Shown here one piece after another: positions 18,012-32,735 of a stretch of 57,659 nucleotides of DNA. The notes beneath the pieces were generated by a model. The model saw only the letters and a program-made list of their open reading frames with translations. It was not told the DNA's origin and did no database searches. Both the position numbers and the translations under genes were made by a program. Origin of the DNA: a virus (lineage: Duplodnaviria > Caudoviricetes); IMG/VR virus record IMGVR_UViG_3300043443_000537, positions 1-57,659 of that record; one strand, written 5' to 3'. Every line of letters begins with the position of its first letter. The stretch's first letter is position 1.

Positions 18012-18259
18012 CGCCGCGCCGCCACCTCCCCCGCTTCGGTCACGCGCCTGCGCACGTGCAGGCCGTCGACCCGGAGCCCTACAACCCGAACGAGCGCGTC
18101 CGCCGTCGTGGCGCGCTCGCCTTCGGCTACGGCGACGCCATCCGGTTTCGCCGCACGCCTAGCATGCCGCGCCCGCGACAGACCGGGCCGGACTTTCCCC
18201 TCCTCGCTCTCGCATTTGTCCTTGCACTCCTCAGCGCGTTCTTACTCTCGCGCCTGTGA
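18008..18259 (+). CDS. Hypothetical protein with C-terminal transmembrane helix
   Basis: ATGA overlap; FPLLALAFVLALLSAFLLSRL. Confidence 0.6.
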   Translation: MTPRRHLPRFGHAPAHVQAVDPEPYNPNERVRRRGALAFGYGDAIRFRRTPSMPRPRQTGPDFPLLALAFVLALLSAFLLSRL

Positions 18260-18296
18260 ACCGCGCCGGGCGGACTCCCGGCAACCCTCCCTCGTT

Positions 18297-19310
18297 ATGA
18301 AACTAGCCTCAATCGAAGTCATCGCCGACGTGCGCCCGCATGGGAATGCCGACCGGCTCGAAATCGCCACCGTCCTCGGCTGGCAAACCGTCGTCCGCAA
18401 GGGCGAGTTCAAGACCGGCGACCGCTGCGTCTTCATCGTGATCGACACTATCCTGCCGCCGGCGCCGTGGTCCGCATTCCTCGCGCACCCCGCCGCGCCC
18501 GACCTGCCTATCCGGCTCAAGACCGCGAAGCTCCGCGGCGAGTTCTCGCAAGGCCTGGCGCTGCCGCTCACCGTCCTGCCGGAGCACATGCGCGACTGGC
18601 AGAACGGCGCCGATGTCGGCGGCGAGCTGGGCGTGAAGAAATACGAGAAGGAGATTCCCGCCGTCCTATCCGGCGAGGCGAAGAGCGCGTTCCCGACTCA
18701 CTTCGCGCCTCGCACCGACGAGGACAACGGCCTGAGTCATCCGAGCATCGTCGAGATGGTCCTGGCTGAGCGCGAGCTCGTCATCACCCTAAAACTCGAC
18801 GGCTCCTCCTGCACGGTCGTGTGGGAGAACGGCAAGGGCATCGTCGACGTCTGCTCGCGCAACCTGAGCCTGCGCGACGACGGGAAGAATGGATTCTGGC
18901 GCGCGGTCAAGAAGCTGAAGCTCGACCGGCTCAGCGGATACCTCGAGTGGGGGCCGCGCACGGTCCTGCAGGGCGAACTCATGGGGCCAGGCGTGCAGGG
19001 CAACCAACTCAAACTCACCGAGCCGACGCTGTTCCTGTTCCAAGTCCACAACGAGGCAACCGGCTGGCTGGCGCATTCCGGCGTCCGGCGCGTCGCGGAA
19101 CATATCGGCGCCGAGGTCGTGCCGCAGATTGAGGTGCCCATCGGCTGGACTAATCGCGACCTCGCTCAACTCCAATCCGTCGCCGACGCGCAGAAGCTCC
19201 CCGACGGCTCGCCCGCCGAGGGCATCGTGGTCCGGCCCGCTCGCGCCATCGCGTTCGGCAACGGCCGCCCCGCCGGCTTCAAGATCATCAATCGCAACTA
19301 CGGCGAATAA
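18297..19310 (+). CDS. ATP-dependent RNA ligase, Rnl2-like (DRB0094 type)
   Basis: N-terminal HGNADRLEIATVLGWQTVV; motif I KLDGSS, III QGELMGPGVQGN, IV EGIVV, V FKIIN; start ATG 18297. Confidence 0.92.
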   Translation: MKLASIEVIADVRPHGNADRLEIATVLGWQTVVRKGEFKTGDRCVFIVIDTILPPAPWSAFLAHPAAPDLPIRLKTAKLRGEFSQGLALPLTVLPEHMRDWQNGADVGGELGVKKYEKEIPAVLSGEAKSAFPTHFAPRTDEDNGLSHPSIVEMVLAERELVITLKLDGSSCTVVWENGKGIVDVCSRNLSLRDDGKNGFWRAVKKLKLDRLSGYLEWGPRTVLQGELMGPGVQGNQLKLTEPTLFLFQVHNEATGWLAHSGVRRVAEHIGAEVVPQIEVPIGWTNRDLAQLQSVADAQKLPDGSPAEGIVVRPARAIAFGNGRPAGFKIINRNYGE

Positions 19311-22494: not shown

Positions 22495-23694
22495 ATGAAC
22501 CTCACCAAACGCACCATCGAAGGCCTGACCTGCAAGCCGGGCCGGGTCACCGAAACCTTCTACGACGAGCGCGTCTCCGGCTTCGGCGTCCGCGTGATCG
22601 CCAAGTCGGGGCGCAAGACCTTCGTGCTCCGCTACCGCACCCGCGCGGGCAGCGAACGATACTACACGCTCGGCCCTTGCGACGTGCTCTCGCCCGACGC
22701 CGCGCGCGCGGAGGCCATGCGCCTGCTCGCCGAGGTCGCGCTTGGCAAAGACCCGGCGGCCGAACTCGAGACCCTGCGCGCCGAGCCGACGGTCGCGACC
22801 CTGGCGACGGAATGGCTGGCGTGGGTGAAGGCCCACAAGAAGCCGAACACCCTCAAGAACTACAAGGCCTGCTACAAGTGCCACGTCGCCCCGGCGTTCG
22901 GGACGTTGCGCGTCTCGGAGGTCACGGAAACCGCGGTCGCCCGCGTGCACGCCAAGATGCACGAGCACAAATATCAGGCCAACCGCGTCGTCGTCATCCT
23001 GACCGCGATGTGGCGGTGGGGGATGCGCTACGGCTACATGCCGAAGGGCCCGGTGCCGTTCCGCGAGATCGAGGCCTACCGTTTCAAGCCGCGCCGGCGG
23101 CGGATGTCGGTCGACGAGCTCGTCGCGACGTGGCGTTCGCTCGACACCTTCACGGGGACCGAACTGGTGAACTTCGCCCCGCTCGTGAAGTTGCTCCTGC
23201 TGACCGGCGCCCGCCTCTCGGAATGGCGCGACGCCCTGTGGTCGTGGGTTGACCTTGACGACGCCCTCCTCCGCCTGCCCGATTCCAAGACCGGCGCGAA
23301 GGACATCCAGCTCCCACCCGAGGCCGTCGAGATCCTGCGCGCGCTGCCGCGGACATCCGTCTACGTGCTGCCAGGCGTGAAGGGCGGCCCGATGCGCGGC
23401 GTCTGGCGGGCGTGGGTGGCGTTTCGCGAATCCATCGGGGCGCCGGACCTGCGCATGCACGACCTGCGCCGCACGGTCGGCAGCATGGCGCTTGAGGCCG
23501 GGCTGAACGTGCGCGAGGTCGCTGACCTGCTCGGCCATGCGAACACCCGCAGCACGGAGATTTACCTCTCCGCCGTGAAGGAGCGCGAGGCCGGCAACGC
23601 GCGGAAGGTCGCGGGCGTGATCGTGCAGCTCGCGACCGGCGGGGCGCCCGTGGTCGAGTCCATTACAAAGCGCCGCGCCGTTTTCAGAAAATAG
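22495..23694 (+). CDS. int: Tyrosine integrase with N-terminal arm-binding domain
   Basis: FYDERVSGFGVRV...GRKTFVLRYR; TGARLSE; DSKTG; HDLRRT; LLGH...TEIY. Confidence 0.96.
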   Translation: MNLTKRTIEGLTCKPGRVTETFYDERVSGFGVRVIAKSGRKTFVLRYRTRAGSERYYTLGPCDVLSPDAARAEAMRLLAEVALGKDPAAELETLRAEPTVATLATEWLAWVKAHKKPNTLKNYKACYKCHVAPAFGTLRVSEVTETAVARVHAKMHEHKYQANRVVVILTAMWRWGMRYGYMPKGPVPFREIEAYRFKPRRRRMSVDELVATWRSLDTFTGTELVNFAPLVKLLLLTGARLSEWRDALWSWVDLDDALLRLPDSKTGAKDIQLPPEAVEILRALPRTSVYVLPGVKGGPMRGVWRAWVAFRESIGAPDLRMHDLRRTVGSMALEAGLNVREVADLLGHANTRSTEIYLSAVKEREAGNARKVAGVIVQLATGGAPVVESITKRRAVFRK

Positions 23695-23697
23695 GGC

Positions 23698-23711
23698 TTG
23701 CGTCGGCGCAA
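23698..23711 (+). promoter_or_regulatory. TTGCG-N4-CGCAA operator/-35 element
   Basis: TTGCGTCGGCGCAA; TAGGTT at 23720-23725; 38 nt before ATG 23736. Confidence 0.8.
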
Positions 23712-23735
23712 GCGGGTCGTAGGTTCGTCGGCGTT

Positions 23736-24095
23736 ATGAGCACCCACGCCTCAATCATCTACAAGACCGCCGACGGCTACGCCGGCATTTACTGCCACTT
23801 CGACGGCTACCCGTCGCACACCGGCCGCGTCCTCAACCGCCACTATTCCCAGCCCGCGAAGGTCGCCGAGTTGATCGCTCTTGGCGACATCTCCGGCTTT
23901 GCCCGCGACGGTCTCCCGGACGCCTACCGTGATCGCGGCGAGGATTGCCCGGCCTCTACGGGCGCGACGCTCAAAGAGGTCGAGGCGGCCATCGGCGGCA
24001 GCTTCACCTACGTCTTCGACGGCGCGGCGTGGACCTGCAACGGCAAGCCGCTCGCCGAGGCCATTGACAAGGACGACGACGGAGGCGACGAGTAA
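23736..24095 (+). CDS. Conserved phage hypothetical protein
   Basis: IYCHFDGYPSHTGRVL...LIALGDIS. Confidence 0.8.
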   Translation: MSTHASIIYKTADGYAGIYCHFDGYPSHTGRVLNRHYSQPAKVAELIALGDISGFARDGLPDAYRDRGEDCPASTGATLKEVEAAIGGSFTYVFDGAAWTCNGKPLAEAIDKDDDGGDE

Positions 24096-24145
24096 GCCTT
24101 GACCCGGGCGCCGCACCGGGCAACGTGCGGCAGGTTCTTTCTCAC

Positions 24146-24221
24146 ATGGCGGAAGCTCAATTGGTCGAGCAGCGGTCTCCAAAATCGCCGGTCGCAGGTT
24201 CGATGCCTGCCCGCCATGCCA
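24146..24221 (+). tRNA. tRNA-Trp (CCA)
   Basis: 76-nt cloverleaf; acceptor ATGGCGG/CCGCCAT, anticodon loop CTCCAAA, T loop TTCGATG, encoded CCA. Confidence 0.92.
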
Positions 24222-24225
24222 CTTT

Positions 24226-24300
24226 TGCAGGATAGTTCAGTGGCAGAACGCCGGTCTCATAAACCGGAAGTCGTGGGTTCGATTCCCGCTCCTGCATCCA
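24226..24300 (+). tRNA. tRNA with CAT anticodon (Met or Ile2)
   Basis: 75-nt cloverleaf; acceptor TGCAGGA/TCCTGCA, loop CTCATAA, TTCGATT, encoded CCA. Confidence 0.92.
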
Positions 24301-24304
24301 CTTC

Positions 24305-24422
24305 CCTCGTCGCGAGGAAGATTGCGATCCGAAAGGCTGCGTATGCCAACCCGGTGACCTCGCGAGCCTAGTTGCATGGGCGGATTGCATCCATGCCGCC
24401 GGTCGTGAAACTACCGGCACCA
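24305..24422 (+). ncRNA. Unknown structured RNA A ending in hairpin+ACCA
   Basis: TCGCGAGG/CCTCGCGA, CC-GAAA-GG, GCATGG/CCATGC, GCCGGT/ACCGGC then ACCA. Confidence 0.55.
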
Positions 24423-24426
24423 ATTT

Positions 24427-24519
24427 CTCCAGCTCACCGCTGGATACGGGCGAGATGTGGCGCGGTCCGCATACCCTTACGAAAGAGACCGCCGTCCGCC
24501 TGCACGTCAGCAGGCACCA
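24427..24519 (+). ncRNA. Unknown structured RNA B ending in hairpin+ACCA
   Basis: TCCAGC/GCTGGA, GGGCG/CGTCC, GCGGTC/GACCGC, GCCTGC/GCAGGC then ACCA. Confidence 0.55.
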
Positions 24520-24539
24520 CTTTCGTTCTTTCTCACTTT

Positions 24540-24903
24540 GGGGCTACACCGGTTTCGACTCTCGTCGAGGCCCTTAGCTGCATGCAGGCGGTGCCGGCTC
24601 CGCCTTGAACCAACCGGCAAACCACAAACGCCAACTCGTTTGATATGGCTCCCTCGGTTGAGCAGGCTGACGCGATCCTCGCGGCCACCGGCTACGTCGA
24701 GACCGAGCTCGCCACGGCTTAATCGACCGTGCCGTCGCCCGCCTGACTCCGCTACGGCGACGCGACGACGACAGCGGAATCTCAATGGCGCCCGTGCCAG
24801 CTCGCGGGATGGTGGAGGGTGACTCCGGTCACCCCTAATTAAGCATGTCGACGCGACGGGCGCAGGCGAGAACACAGGGGTTCGACTCCCCTTAGCTCCA
24901 CCA
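24540..24903 (+). ncRNA. ssrA: tmRNA
   Basis: 5' GGGGCTA...GGTTTCGAC; 3' GGGGTTCGACTCCCC-TAGCTCC-ACCA; G3:U70 alanine identity pair; internal tag ORF 24630-24722. Confidence 0.93.
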
Positions 24904-24905
24904 TT

Positions 24906-25033
24906 TTCCCCGTGCCTGCGCAGGCCGAGGCGTCGGAGTCAGTGGCGCATCTGGTGCGTCGCGAGGCTGGCCCTTGGCGCGAGCGTGCGCTACTTCAGGC
25001 TCAGCCTCGTGCTGGGACGCTCGCGGCGGGGAA
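24906..25033 (+). ncRNA. Unknown structured RNA C with predicted loop-loop pseudoknot
   Basis: Closing stem 24906-12/25027-33; stems 24924-30/24972-78 and 24979-86/25017-24; 9-bp loop-loop pair 24961-69/25002-10. Confidence 0.6.
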
Positions 25034-25040
25034 TTCAATT

Positions 25041-25155
25041 TGAGCGGCGGCGTGGAAAGCGCAGGCATGCGCGATCCGCGGTGGCGTCCTGACGACCGGC
25101 ACGGGTTGATCGCCGACGGAAGCGTTCAGCCGGTTCAAATCCGCCCGCTCAATCA
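25041..25155 (+). ncRNA. Enlarged tRNA-like RNA D (115 nt)
   Basis: Acceptor TGAGCGG/CCGCTCA, D-loop-like GTGGAAA, T loop GGTTCAAATCC, ends ATCA; no canonical anticodon arm. Confidence 0.6.
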
Positions 25156-25424
25156 TTTCCCCGATACCACCCCCACGGCTACGGCCCAAGGGTGCGCCAT
25201 TCGAAAAGTCCGGCGAGGTGCGCGCGCACTAGACCGGCTCCGGACAGGGGTTTAACTCCGGCGCTTATCGCCTCGGCGTAACAATCGCAGGCGACGTGCT
25301 CAACGATAGAACGCTAGCGGCCTGGCCCACCGCGATAAACCAACGGGCCACATCTTCCGACCTGCACGGTCTTCATAACCGCCGATCCCGCCGGCGTTGC
25401 AGCGAGCGGGCGAATTTCCCCGTC

Positions 25425-25646
25425 ATGCACATCCTCCTCCAATCCTTCGCCGCCGGGCTCGCCTTCGCGCTCGGCGCTTTCGTCGGGATCGGCGTCGCCG
25501 GTCTACTCTTCCGCTCGCGTGACAACGGCGCGATGGACCGACTTCTCGACACCAACAAACGCATCGAGGACCGGCTCAATGCGCAGGTGTCATGCCTGAC
25601 TCGCATTGCGGCCGCCGCCGAGCGGTCGAAGGAGGCGAAGCCGTGA
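25425..25646 (+). CDS. Small membrane protein
   Basis: N-terminal TM FAAGLAFALGAFVGIGVAGLLF plus coiled coil. Confidence 0.7.
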   Translation: MHILLQSFAAGLAFALGAFVGIGVAGLLFRSRDNGAMDRLLDTNKRIEDRLNAQVSCLTRIAAAAERSKEAKP

Positions 25647-25696
25647 GCGACCACCTGCGGTTCCACCGCTAAACAATTTTCCGCCGCGTAAATCGC

Positions 25697-26266
25697 ATGT
25701 CCTCAACAACCATCAACCGTAATCAACTCAAATCGTTCAACGCGTTTGCTTCTGCTTCTGCTTCGAATGCTCTTTGTGCGGACTCCACGGTGCCTAAAAA
25801 AAATCGTTCTTTGAGGCGCGACACCGCGACGACGGGGGAATCGTCCTCACCCCTCGCGGCGGATTCAATCTCAACTCGGGTGCGCATGATCTGCGAGCGG
25901 GCCGAGCCTGCGTGCGGGACGATCATGGCTCACGTAAACGGATGGGTCTGGTGCATGGTCTGCCCCGAGACTCACAAAATCTCTCCAACCTACTCGCCGA
26001 TGCGCTATGCCTTGACAGAAAAGGCGCGGCGAGAGGCCAAGATAAAAGCAGGCTTTTGTGCCGAGTGTGGCCGCCGACGAGACACAATCTCCTCTCGCTT
26101 GTGCGCCAGGCATCTCGCCATGAAGCGTGTCCGTAAGCGCCGATATGACGAGCGTCGTAACTTGGCCGTCAAGGACTCACTTTATTCTGGTTCCAGCCGA
26201 GGTATGTCCGGCGGGGCCGTTATCACCTATGACCTCCGTGACGAGACTGCCGGCATCTTGCTCTGA
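25697..26266 (+). CDS. Hypothetical Cys-rich protein (start uncertain)
   Basis: CMVC, CAEC...LCARH; lower GC than neighbours. Confidence 0.45.
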   Translation: MSSTTINRNQLKSFNAFASASASNALCADSTVPKKNRSLRRDTATTGESSSPLAADSISTRVRMICERAEPACGTIMAHVNGWVWCMVCPETHKISPTYSPMRYALTEKARREAKIKAGFCAECGRRRDTISSRLCARHLAMKRVRKRRYDERRNLAVKDSLYSGSSRGMSGGAVITYDLRDETAGILL

Positions 26267-26796: not shown

Positions 26797-27092
26797 GGCG
26801 CAGGGTTGAGCGAGTCGATTACGTCCTGCGTGCAGGCCGCGTAGCCTGCCGCGTCCACCATGTTGTCCCGCTTCGGTCGATGCGCCTGGCGCGCGACCTT
26901 CACGAGAATCATGAGCGGGCCGATGTCCTCCGCGCGCACGGTCACGGTGCGGCCGTTGGTCCGGCTAAGGTAGGCGGAGAACATCGCGGCCTGCGTGGTG
27001 AAGTCGTCGACGGGCGGCCCGTAGGCGGCGTGCCGGTCGCCGTAGACGAGCGACTTAGCCTCGGTGAGGATGTCGGGAGGGGTGGCGCTCAT
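26793..27092 (-). CDS. DUF6378-like protein
   Basis: ILTEAKSLVYGDRHAAYGPP...KVAR...RDNMVDAAGY; start ATG 27092. Confidence 0.75.
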   Translation of the reverse strand: MSATPPDILTEAKSLVYGDRHAAYGPPVDDFTTQAAMFSAYLSRTNGRTVTVRAEDIGPLMILVKVARQAHRPKRDNMVDAAGYAACTQDVIDSLNPAP

Positions 27093-28108
27093 GAGTTCAG
27101 GAGTTTGCCGTTGTGGATGCGGAAGTTTGTGACGTTGAAGAGGCCGCCAGTGCTGACCTCGATCTCTGCGAAGCCGTGATTCCATCCGTTGTTCGGCTCG
27201 TAGAGGGGCCGCAGCTCGCACAGGCAGCCGGTCGACCAACAGGTCACGATGTCGCGGCCGAGGTTGGTCTCTGTGTGCTCGGAGGTTTTGTGTGAGTGGC
27301 TGACCATACACGAGACCTTCGCGCGCATGAAGGCGCCGCGGGCGGGGTTGACCGGCGCGGAGATGCCGCGGGGGAGCTCGTGGCCGTGTAGGACCGGGAG
27401 CTTCCCAACCATGACCTCGCGCTTCTCGTAGACGTGCTCGATCCCGAACTTCTTGAGATTGAACAGCGCGCCGAGTCCGTTGATCGTGACGTCGTAGAGT
27501 TCCGGCGCGCGCTCCATGATGTAGTGCTGCAGGCGCTCGTCGTGGTTGCCTTCCTTGAAGACGATGCGGGCGTCGGGGAATAGCTCGCGCAGCTTGCTCA
27601 GGAACGCGAGCGCGGTCTTGCGCTCCTGCTTGAACGACCGAGCCTCCGGGTTCTTGCAGAAGCGCGAGAGCGTGTGGAAGTCCGCGAGGTCGCCGTTGAT
27701 GAGGATGCCGTCGACCTTGCGGCGCTGGCCGGTCTGCAACGCCAGCGTCAGGGCGCCGATGTTGTGATACGGGAGGTGGATGTCGGGCAGCACGAGGACG
27801 CGCTCGCAGCCGTCCATGATGAACGGTGTGTGCTCGCGCTCAAACGAGGCCGGGAGATTGAGCGGGTTGATGGGATTGAACTTGGAGGCTGGCGTGGTTA
27901 TGGCGGCGAGTCCGCGATCCTCTCGCTTTGCCTTCCCATTTGCGCCGCGGCGATACCGGATGGCGCAGCGCGCCGCATCCACGTCCTTCCACACCCGAGG
28001 ATGCTTCTTTGCCATGAGCCGCGCGAGCGTGAGCGACGGCATATCGGGGTGCTTCTTGACGTATTCGTCGGCGAGCTCGCTCGCGTGCGGGTTCTTGTGG
28101 TTGGGCAT
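27089..28108 (-). CDS. Calcineurin-like metallophosphoesterase
   Basis: DIH, NGDLAD, GNHD, HGH and SHSH motifs. Confidence 0.9.
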   Translation of the reverse strand: MPNHKNPHASELADEYVKKHPDMPSLTLARLMAKKHPRVWKDVDAARCAIRYRRGANGKAKREDRGLAAITTPASKFNPINPLNLPASFEREHTPFIMDGCERVLVLPDIHLPYHNIGALTLALQTGQRRKVDGILINGDLADFHTLSRFCKNPEARSFKQERKTALAFLSKLRELFPDARIVFKEGNHDERLQHYIMERAPELYDVTINGLGALFNLKKFGIEHVYEKREVMVGKLPVLHGHELPRGISAPVNPARGAFMRAKVSCMVSHSHKTSEHTETNLGRDIVTCWSTGCLCELRPLYEPNNGWNHGFAEIEVSTGGLFNVTNFRIHNGKLLNS

Positions 28109-32228: not shown

Positions 32229-32735
32229 TTACAGGCCGATGGCGGCGCGCTGCGCGGCGAGGCGGTCGACGCCGTTGATCTTGCGCACCATGTTCAGCAC
32301 ATCGATCTCGTGAACGACGGTGCCGCCCTGGGTGTAGCGGAAGAACGTCAGGGTCGCGGTGAACGTGAGCGACGACTTGGCGCCGGGCTGCCAGGCGCCG
32401 AACTCGACGCCCTTGAAGTTGCCGCGGGCGTTGACGACGACCGGGGTGACGGTCCCGTCGCGGGACTCAAGCGCGCCGCGCAAGGTGACGGGCGTCTCAG
32501 CGTTGCCGAGGCCCCACTGCGCGAGGGCGTCCTTGTCGTATTTGGAGAGCGTGAAGCTGAGTTCGAGCTTCTCCATGCCCATGTCGAGGCCGATGGTGCC
32601 ATCCATGCCGCCGGCACGGAAGTCCTCTTCGACGATGTTGAGGGTGGGGAGTTGCACCTCGTCGGCGTTGCCCGCGTAACCGCGGCCGTCGATGAAGAGG
32701 TTGAAGTTTTTGAGGATGTCGCGAGCGGCGCTCAT
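32229..32735 (-). CDS. Major tail tube protein (P2 FII-like)
   Basis: LKNFNLFIDGRGYAG...FRAGGMDG...HEIDVLNM..INGVDRLA. Confidence 0.95.
   Translation of the reverse strand: MSAARDILKNFNLFIDGRGYAGNADEVQLPTLNIVEEDFRAGGMDGTIGLDMGMEKLELSFTLSKYDKDALAQWGLGNAETPVTLRGALESRDGTVTPVVVNARGNFKGVEFGAWQPGAKSSLTFTATLTFFRYTQGGTVVHEIDVLNMVRKINGVDRLAAQRAAIGL

Follow-up and report, generated by a model that had tools for sequence, protein, structure and literature searches.

Two tandem units with tRNA-like 3' ends in the tRNA/tmRNA array of a temperate phage: a putative portable acceptor-end cassette

Phage tRNA clusters are usually annotated as tRNAs and meaningless spacers. The complete virus record IMGVR_UViG_3300043443_000537, which is analyzed here as the window (57,659 bp, with direct terminal repeats), raises the question of what such a spacer may contain. 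Between its genes for tRNA-Met and transfer-messenger RNA (tmRNA) lie 239 nt holding two tandem non-coding units, A and B, each of which ends in a short GC-rich hairpin followed immediately by ACCA. The reading proposed for this end, to which a probability of roughly 0.45 is assigned, is that of a portable mimic of the 3' acceptor end of tRNA, a cassette through which the enzymes of tRNA processing would set and protect the ends of small RNAs that are produced together with tRNAs.

The end of unit A consists of GCCGGT (24398-24403), the loop CGTGAAACT, ACCGGC (24413-24418) and ACCA (24419-24422); that of unit B consists of GCCTGC (24498-24503), the loop ACGTCA, GCAGGC (24510-24515) and ACCA (24516-24519). 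An initial annotation of this DNA had given exactly these letters, and fold comparison agrees with its statement that the upstream hairpins of the two units differ. Both units end with a discriminator A after a GC-rich stem, as in the tip of a tRNA acceptor, which had also been noted. The initial annotation did not mention the genomic setting, in which the units are located between tRNA-Met and the tmRNA gene. On the + strand the array runs in the order hairpin, tRNA-Trp, tRNA-Met, 239-nt spacer, tmRNA, and CCA is encoded in all three recognised RNA genes. The genome contains the 9-nt pattern ACCA-N-TTTC three times (expected, about 0.6), once each at the end of A, of B and of tmRNA, and N-T-T-Y directly follows each of the five CCA ends of the array.

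Units A and B differ in sequence and have a common architecture: a long hairpin, one C, a microhelix and ACCA. Pairs 4 and 6 of the microhelix are changed on both sides with pairing kept (G-C in A versus T-A in B, and T-A versus C-G), and pairs 1-3 (G-C, C-G, C-G) and the discriminator A are identical. In isolation, the terminal hairpins fold at -11.4 kcal/mol in A (2 of 200 shuffles as good) and -12.1 kcal/mol in B (none of 200). With both hairpins included, 24374-24422 of A reaches -21.5 kcal/mol, equalled by none of 200 shuffles, and 24459-24519 of B reaches -23.8 kcal/mol, equalled by one. In the isolated units, the pairs of the terminal stem have probabilities of 0.79-0.82 (A) and 0.93-0.97 (B).

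Both strands of the genome were scanned for a perfect stem of at least 6 bp, a loop of 3-10 nt and ACCA immediately 3'. Only two sites were found in 57.7 kb, namely the ends of A and B, 100 nt apart. First-order Markov simulations give a mean of 1.1 such sites per genome, and a genome-wide count of two is by itself unremarkable. The location of both sites within one 239-nt spacer and on the tRNA strand has a Poisson probability of about 3e-6, which is a post-hoc figure.

Two patterns were scanned against IMG/VR. Scan 1 (CCGCC-N9-16-GGCACCA-N-TTTC) matched at least 119 stretches. Among the matches listed, six had a 6-bp stem, and one of these lies on contig G036 (stretches L254 and L301), from an unrelated phage with a GC content of 0.45. 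One strand of G036 carries, in this order, a tRNA-like RNA that at 28.7 bits narrowly misses the tRNA cut-off, then tRNA-Thr, a 127-nt unit and an 89-nt unit. The longer unit ends in CC-GCCGGAA-ACTATA-TTCCGGC-ACCA-ATTTC, and the shorter one, which the search pattern did not require, in GCCGC-GGCGTTACG-GCGGC-ACCA-ATTTC. Their lengths are similar to the 122 and 97 nt of A and B, and the first three pairs, GCC/GGC, together with A73 are common to all four units. Sequence features, non-random placement, a common end signature and recurrence in an unrelated phage are all directly visible in these data.

Scan 2 (GCCGG-N5-14-CCGGC-ACCA-N-TTTC) returned 46 loci. In five of them, same-strand tRNA genes lie 8-160 nt away, against 1 of 94 other loci from IMG/VR (Fisher P 0.015; counting L312 and L321 as one, P 0.038). 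At L298, tRNA-Tyr is followed by a 107-nt unit; at L306, tRNA-Met is followed by 159 nt; and at L312 and L321 the element stands 8 nt before tRNA-Trp and tRNA-Gly, respectively. In scan 1, tRNA linkage was seen in one of the 119 matches listed, L254, which is the same G036 site. A canonical terminator lies within 110 nt downstream of the element in 6 of the 46 loci and within 115 nt upstream in none of them. The resulting order of CCA, trailer and terminator is the layout of a tRNA-type gene. Directly 3' of the hairpin-ACCA-NTTTC element of L294 is a short hairpin-plus-terminator unit (L294:832-897, - strand), with similar arrangements in L302, L304 and L286; against the Betaproteobacteria toxic small RNA family the L294 unit scores 33.9 bits, below the cut-off of 50. 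A short blastn search with the L286 element against GenBank phages gave no match.

Under the proposed reading, A and B would be small non-coding RNA genes carried as cargo of the tRNA/tmRNA array and co-transcribed with it. The putative cassette comprises a GC-rich 6-bp hairpin starting with G-C, C-G, C-G, then a discriminator A, CCA and the trailer N-U-U-U-C, and it would copy the end of a CCA-encoding tRNA or tmRNA gene; therefore, host enzymes that process tRNA ends should treat it alike. In E. coli tRNA precursors, according to the portion of PMC2190699 cited here, RNase E cuts first, 1-3 nt past the encoded CCA, and exonucleases trim afterwards. The corresponding steps here would be an endonuclease cut in the U-rich trailer just past CCA, followed by 3' exonucleases that trim back and halt at the CCA beside a stable helix. 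An additional cut, on the 5' side at the foot of the hairpin, may be made by RNase P, which reads a helix plus RCCA. The relevant part of PMC11143913 describes RNase P as pairing with 3' RCCA and cleaving model hairpin-loop substrates, and names pre-tmRNA, 4.5S RNA, phage M3 RNA and phage C4 RNA as further substrates. The outcome would be discrete RNAs with a defined and protected end, or released upstream bodies plus a microhelix of 22-25 nt. Transcription of A and B, every cleavage step and the stability of the products are deduced from sequence. Since A and B offer a helix, A-CCA and a tmRNA-like U-rich trailer, they are read as carrying a minimal portable tRNA-end signal. The suggestion in the initial annotation of an acceptor-end mimic, with CCA as an end or stability tag, thus gains from the tRNA-strand array in which all recognised genes encode CCA, from the tmRNA-like ACCA-N-TTTC and from the tandem units of G036; its charging component fares worse, as described below.

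No known class of RNA was recognised in A or B. ARAGORN called only tRNA-Trp, tRNA-Met and tmRNA in the array, with no cloverleaf in either unit, and the Rfam tRNA model had no match in 24301-24539 with the E limit raised to 10. The 4227 models of Rfam 15, including YrlA, C4, skipping-rope and other tRNA mimics, likewise gave no + strand match there at E up to 10; two minus-strand matches had E above 5. Among the outside elements, no Rfam family was found in 16 loci at E up to 0.1. The single match of the region to mascRNA-menRNA is the tmRNA end (24859-24899, E 2.7), not A or B. Two further candidates were tried and rejected. A degenerate tRNA at 24350-24422 can be drawn with a 7-bp closing stem containing a C-C mismatch, and no T arm or 7-nt anticodon loop fits. 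Exact complements elsewhere in the genome that might point to an antisense role extend to at most 15 nt (24388-24402 against 32600-32614), and shuffles reach 15 nt in 1 of 100 cases and 14 nt in 13 of 100.

Known systems offer precedents in kind and in mechanism. Phage T4 RNAC and RNAD have tRNA-like paired 5' and 3' ends and are cut by RNase P, whereas the acceptor-like helix of A and B is a local hairpin and not a pairing of the two ends of the RNA. Like A and B, which lie as putative non-tRNA RNA genes on the same strand within a phage tRNA cluster, they are small non-tRNA RNAs inside such a cluster, and the cited passages assign them no role (PMC3014915, PMC9697503). They are the nearest precedent in kind, by description only. 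In mechanism, the nearest precedents are the non-tRNA substrates of RNase P and t-element-like signals. A and B resemble the former, as the passages cited from PMC11143913 present them, in having a helix and a single-stranded RCCA tail that pairs with the ribozyme, where R is A in both units (GGC-ACCA on stable stems). They differ in their short stems, in the neighbouring hairpin 1 nt upstream and in lacking a match to C4 or any other Rfam family at E up to 10; neither unit has a stack of acceptor/T-stem length, a T-loop-like cap or a free 5' leader, and the loops of 9 nt (A) and 6 nt (B) contain no T-loop motif. In plant mitochondrial t-elements and mascRNA, the same idea is seen (PMC1920247): a tRNA-like fold lets tRNA enzymes make the ends of neighbouring RNAs. 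Those signals are cloverleaf-like and organellar or eukaryotic, while A and B mimic only the acceptor tip and encode the CCA. What sets A and B apart is that the acceptor tip alone would be copied, as a local hairpin with encoded CCA acting as a movable 3' module on unrelated bodies. No description of such a cassette was found in open-access papers or bioRxiv (supplements aside).

The spacer of this array therefore holds two structured units bearing a minimal copy of the business end of tRNA, in a tandem design that recurs in an unrelated phage. Should RNase E, RNase P and the enzymes that trim 3' ends indeed recognise the cassette, no smaller natural tRNA-like punctuation mark would be known from bacteria or phages, and it would provide a handle for finding further hidden phage RNAs.

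Several observations weigh against the cassette reading. Within a 335-nt context the pair probabilities of the terminal stem of A drop to 0.46-0.48 (those of B are about 1.0), because 24351-24356 compete for pairing with 24412-24417, and for the 222-nt region as a whole the fold is only slightly more stable than those of shuffled sequences (z -1.71; 12 of 200 shuffles do as well). With stems of 6 bp, and two additional inner pairs in A, the units reach half the length of the acceptor/T-stem stack found in the classic model substrates of RNase P, and the upstream hairpin leaves a linker of only 1 nt at the presumed cleavage site. Most of the outside examples came from patterns that demanded the stem, ACCA and TTTC; the 6-bp stems in 6 of the 119 matches listed in scan 1 are about the chance number, and in 401 bacterial genomes the pattern had 3 matches versus 2 for a reversed control, without enrichment. 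Pairwise consensus folds of A with the first G036 unit and of B with the second gave poor alignments with the microhelix misplaced, and the bodies do not align. The units of the two phages have the cassette alone in common, and their bodies give no grounds for proposing a joint structure. What speaks for a real cassette is thus the window, G036 and a few tRNA-linked loci, and not the raw match counts.

The relatives of the phage add to this side in part. A blastn search of 24100-24950 against 50,697 GenBank phage records matched 650 records in tRNA parts only, with none at 80% coverage and the best at 14%. The terminal 25 nt of A had no exact match in IMG/VR, and a short blastn search with the A cassette against GenBank phages gave only chance matches in genes. 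The nearest IMG/VR relative, G001, has a capsid protein 82% identical and synteny at about 74% nucleotide identity. It lacks the integrase, the RNA ligase, the tRNAs, A, B and the tmRNA, and tblastn found 2 of 14 window proteins in it. G001 keeps the opening hairpin and the 12-nt leader GTTCTTTCTCAC (92% over 24107-24145) as well as the closing trailer. Its slot from leader to trailer holds one 74-nt stem-closed RNA ending in T-CCA and preceded by the same 12 nt. A 2,414-nt contig (run X3) keeps the opening hairpin and leader, tRNA-Met, the stretch of the second leader and tmRNA, and the array-closing trailer. In this contig, 133 other letters replace tRNA-Trp and likeness resumes exactly at CCA (24219), and 242 other letters replace 24302-24515 and likeness resumes exactly at ACCA (24516). 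A further contig of 524 nt (run X6) covers 24491-24543, with the B hairpin, ACCA and leader, at 5 differences. The expectation in the initial annotation that homologues should keep the stem and ACCA thus meets a divided picture: G001 has neither unit, and X3 has other sequence yet rejoins at ACCA.

These comparisons suggest that the array is a swappable cargo slot, running from a conserved hairpin and leader to a conserved trailer and filled with units ending in CCA. A and B are swappable cargo, because the closest relative is without them, and they themselves are lineage-specific. Such a fast-changing slot could also hold non-functional leftovers, either RNA genes in decay or scars left where CCA ends recombined repeatedly. 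The slot content does differ among the window, G001 and X3, the leader is duplicated, and the bodies of A and B have no detectable relatives. Decayed tRNAs, however, should keep traces of the D, anticodon or T arm, and none appear at E up to 10; both terminal hairpins are perfect, and the same tandem two-unit design with similar lengths occurs in a phage of very different base composition, G036. An origin as leftovers is therefore considered very doubtful.

The slot also lies only 450 nt downstream of a tyrosine integrase gene (22495-23694), and integrases of this kind commonly use the ends of tRNA or tmRNA genes. One of the two dyads might thus be the attP site, copying the 3' end of a tRNA-like target in the host. 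A tRNA 3' fragment would bring a T arm and a 7-nt acceptor strand, whereas here the hairpin abuts ACCA with no T-arm-like sequence before it, and the sites come as tandem pairs both in the window and in G036. No host attB was found: the genome collection contained no prophage relative of the integrase, and capsid relatives there were at most 54% identical. This explanation is highly improbable.

The array does not appear to be a trait of the wider phage group, because few capsid relatives have a tRNA-model match: of 30 viral records, 4 had one at E up to 0.001 and a single record exceeded the cut-off. The best of the capsid relatives at 51-54% identity are in Verrucomicrobia metagenome-assembled genomes. 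Other anchors gave little: the open reading frame (ORF) of 119 aa before the array led to 48 loci with a tRNA nearby in one, the 93-aa ORF to no loci, and the integrase to no relatives in genome contigs. The leader 17-mer occurs in four IMG/VR stretches, of which G001 is related and the other three are AT-rich chance matches. The 19-mer of leader plus tmRNA start matched five stretches of JGI metagenome contigs, all by chance (GC 0.40-0.45; only the 19-mer matches).

A simpler account of A and B is that of generic GC-rich hairpins with a T/C-rich tail, serving as leaky terminators, attenuators or exonuclease blocks, in which ACCA is incidental and no tRNA is mimicked. The hairpin that opens the array bears on both accounts. 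It has the same GCC..GGC ends, is followed by AGG and a T/C tract instead of ACCA, and is flagged as terminator-like over 23600-25800 by a rule asking for a GC-rich stem, a gap of 0-2 nt and then a run with at least 5 T in 8; this is a further point against the cassette reading. Neither A nor B passes that rule, and under a looser one (5 T in 12 nt) B passes and A fails. Like intrinsic terminators, A and B have a GC-rich hairpin with T-rich sequence downstream, but their T tract starts only after 4-5 non-T bases (ACCA plus N). The clear terminators of this genome (13283-13313, 45279-45309) have an immediate T run and stems of 11-12 bp, twice the length of those in A and B. No sigma-70 promoter (-35/-10 hexamers with 16-18 nt spacing) was found in 23600-25800, and a terminator right before tmRNA would then silence it. 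Moreover, in the 6 outside loci with a terminator downstream the element would be redundant as a terminator, and the ends of A, B and the tmRNA have ACCA-N-TTTC in common (3 of 3).

A look-alike hairpin family also bears on this account. About 14 of the 46 matches of scan 2 belong to a different family, marked by GTGACA, a 5-bp stem and a GAGAGA-type loop. Its stems covary (GCCGG/CCGGC, TCCGG/CCGGA, ACCGG/CCGGT, GACCG/CGGTC), as in the two copies of Planktothrix phage Pag-Yong1. It often lies just upstream of a ribosome-binding site, and it is found inside the tRNA arrays of Phaeobacter phage MD18 and of L306, in the latter after tRNA-Met. In copies whose tail the pattern had left free, this is ACCG, ATTG, AACT or AGCA, which again counts against the cassette: the MD18 copy ends in ACCG, and the second copies in L306, L280 and L324 and both Pag-Yong1 copies have other tails. 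Hairpins without ACCA thus do occur in phage tRNA arrays, as the generic account would expect, and because these tails vary, ACCA is not a general property of such hairpins. Taken with the terminator results, the generic account appears unlikely.

The GTGACA family itself has no Rfam match and is single-copy in all five IMG/VR records checked. It was seen at L281, L282, L288, L295, L305, L306, L313, L319, L320, L280 and L324, at L331:2501-2534 in MD18, between two tRNA-Leu genes, and in Pag-Yong1 at about 2000-2030 and 2140-2170 of L332. By eye, the "spacers" L331:431-512 and L331:2615-2880 of the MD18 array look like unannotated tRNA-like genes, with 7-bp acceptor pairing, a T arm and an ACCA or GCCA end.

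If the tip of A and B does imitate an acceptor, it might act as such and not only as an end signal. The initial annotation had raised aminoacylation. Short acceptor helices with NCCA occur both in chargeable mini- and microhelices and in the tRNA-like domain of tmRNA, whose end here is also ACCA-N-TTTC. The marks that permit such charging, in the part of PMC9976931 cited, are G3:U70 for Ala, G-1:C73 for His and U73 for Cys. All three are absent from A and B, which also lack a T-arm stack: both stems have C3-G70 and A73, and the C that precedes G1 is not a paired extra 5' G. Charging of the microhelices is disfavoured for this reason.

More broadly, the exposed microhelix with ACCA could itself be an effector, either charged or acting in trans as an acceptor-end decoy for a host factor that recognises the tail of tRNA. 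CCA-pyrophosphorylating toxSAS toxins, MenT-type nucleotidyltransferases, Cas12a3 and a synthetase are candidate targets. The toxSAS enzyme FaRel2 modifies minihelices, with G1-C72, C2-G71, G4-C69 and purine5-pyrimidine68 as its reported determinants (bioRxiv 10.1101/2024.07.05.602228); the stem of A has all four, and that of B has T4-A69. Cas12a3 is described, in the section cited from PMC12851939, as cleaving truncated acceptor-stem/CCA substrates and tolerating stem changes when CCA is present. The constancy of the GCC/GGC pairs and A73 in the four units of the window and G036 is in keeping with an effector, as is the investment of the phage in RNA repair and tRNA supply, with two tRNAs, tmRNA and an RNA ligase (18108-19310; PF09414 plus a PHA02142 OB-fold domain). 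Against this stand the missing charging marks and the nature of the FaRel2 match, which is a resemblance only, to one enzyme of an unrelated host. An effector role is accordingly judged distinctly unlikely. Its most specific form is thought quite improbable: a phage-made acceptor-tip decoy, freed in quantity from the tRNA operon by host processing, that would titrate immune effectors attacking CCA ends, or a synthetase, and so protect the real tRNA pool, as an RNA-only anti-defence module moving between phages as a cassette. If it were true, an RNA countermeasure would join the growing list of defences attacking tRNA tails. Whether as end signal or as decoy, A and B offer a directly testable case for the 50-year-old question of what purpose non-tRNA RNAs serve in phage tRNA operons.

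The positions of the array features are collected in Table 1.

Table 1. Features of the RNA array of the window, from the opening hairpin to the closing trailer
Feature	Position	Strand	Basis
Opening hairpin, GCCGCAC..GTGCGGC, then T/C-rich tract	24110-24131	+	Terminator scan: terminator-like
Leader copy 1, GTTCTTTCTCAC, abutting the 5' side of tRNA-Trp	24134-24145	+	Direct repeat D5 with 24525-24536
tRNA-Trp, CCA anticodon, CCA encoded	24146-24221	+	ARAGORN; Rfam tRNA, 55.2 bits
tRNA-Met, CAT anticodon, discriminator T, CCA encoded	24226-24300	+	ARAGORN; Rfam tRNA, 69.7 bits
Putative unit A, 122 nt, non-coding, from tRNA-Met trailer through ACCA	24301-24422	+	Limits inferred from flanking CCA ends
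Penultimate hairpin of A, GCATGGG..CCATGC	24374-24396	+	Fold; one C before terminal hairpin
Terminal microhelix of A, 6 bp, inner 2 bp, ACCA	24398-24422	+	Sequence and folding
Putative unit B, 97 nt, trailer ATTTC at start, ACCA at end	24423-24519	+	Sequence and folding
Penultimate long hairpin of B	24459-24496	+	Fold; one C before terminal hairpin
Terminal microhelix of B, 6 bp, 6-nt loop, ACCA	24498-24519	+	Sequence and folding
B trailer and tmRNA leader, with leader copy 2 (24525-24536)	24520-24539	+	Repeat D5
Full-length tmRNA, end ACCA, then TTTTC	24540-24903	+	ARAGORN; Rfam tmRNA, 68.9 bits, model positions 1-374
Array-closing trailer, conserved, ..CCCCGTGCCTGCGCAGG..	24904-24930	+	Aligned with G001; present in run X3 contig

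Matches to PHROG and Pfam indicate a temperate phage with a contractile tail. The structural genes recognised are those for tail sheath, tape measure, baseplate, a fused protease/major head protein, portal and large terminase. The last member of the rightward gene block is the 119-aa ORF, which ends at 24095; the RNA array starts after it on the + strand, and the opening hairpin forms the boundary between the protein-coding block and the array. The sequence TTCTTTCTCAC has two occurrences genome-wide. A calcineurin-like metallophosphoesterase gene (27089-28108) flanks the array region together with the RNA ligase gene. These two may be a candidate RNA-repair pair, and neither is found in G001.

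G001 contains two copies of its 73-74 nt stem-closed RNA (L096:1424-1497 and L096:446-518, both on the - strand). Both have GTGGTTTGC..GCAAAGGAC in common, and of 21 predicted pairs, 5 differ in both bases between the copies with pairing kept. Copy 1 occupies the cargo slot and ends in T-CCA, and copy 2 ends in ATTCA. The 74-nt RNA has no Rfam match, and the motif scan revealed no relatives in IMG/VR; its motif was found in 11 IMG/VR stretches, on 9 contigs besides G001, all inside apparent coding sequence. The non-coding blocks 24904-25060 and 25351-25408 of the window are conserved with G001 though the surrounding genes differ. Conserved blocks after the array include CCCCGTGCCT.CGCAGG, GCGCGAGCGTGCG and a 42-nt block at 25014-25055 (93% identical).

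In the Rfam alignment, the phage tRNA-Met has T1-A72 as its first pair and T as its discriminator, a combination that is unusual in a methionine acceptor. This tRNA could be of the Ile2 type or otherwise specialised. The tag predicted by ARAGORN for the tmRNA, whose gene lies 850 nt from the integrase gene, is unusually long, with 30 residues ending in ..ELATA. At 25244-25259, 340 nt past the tmRNA, 14 of 16 nt match the T-arm sequence of the tmRNA (family D7), a near-repeat that may be a chance occurrence or a remnant.

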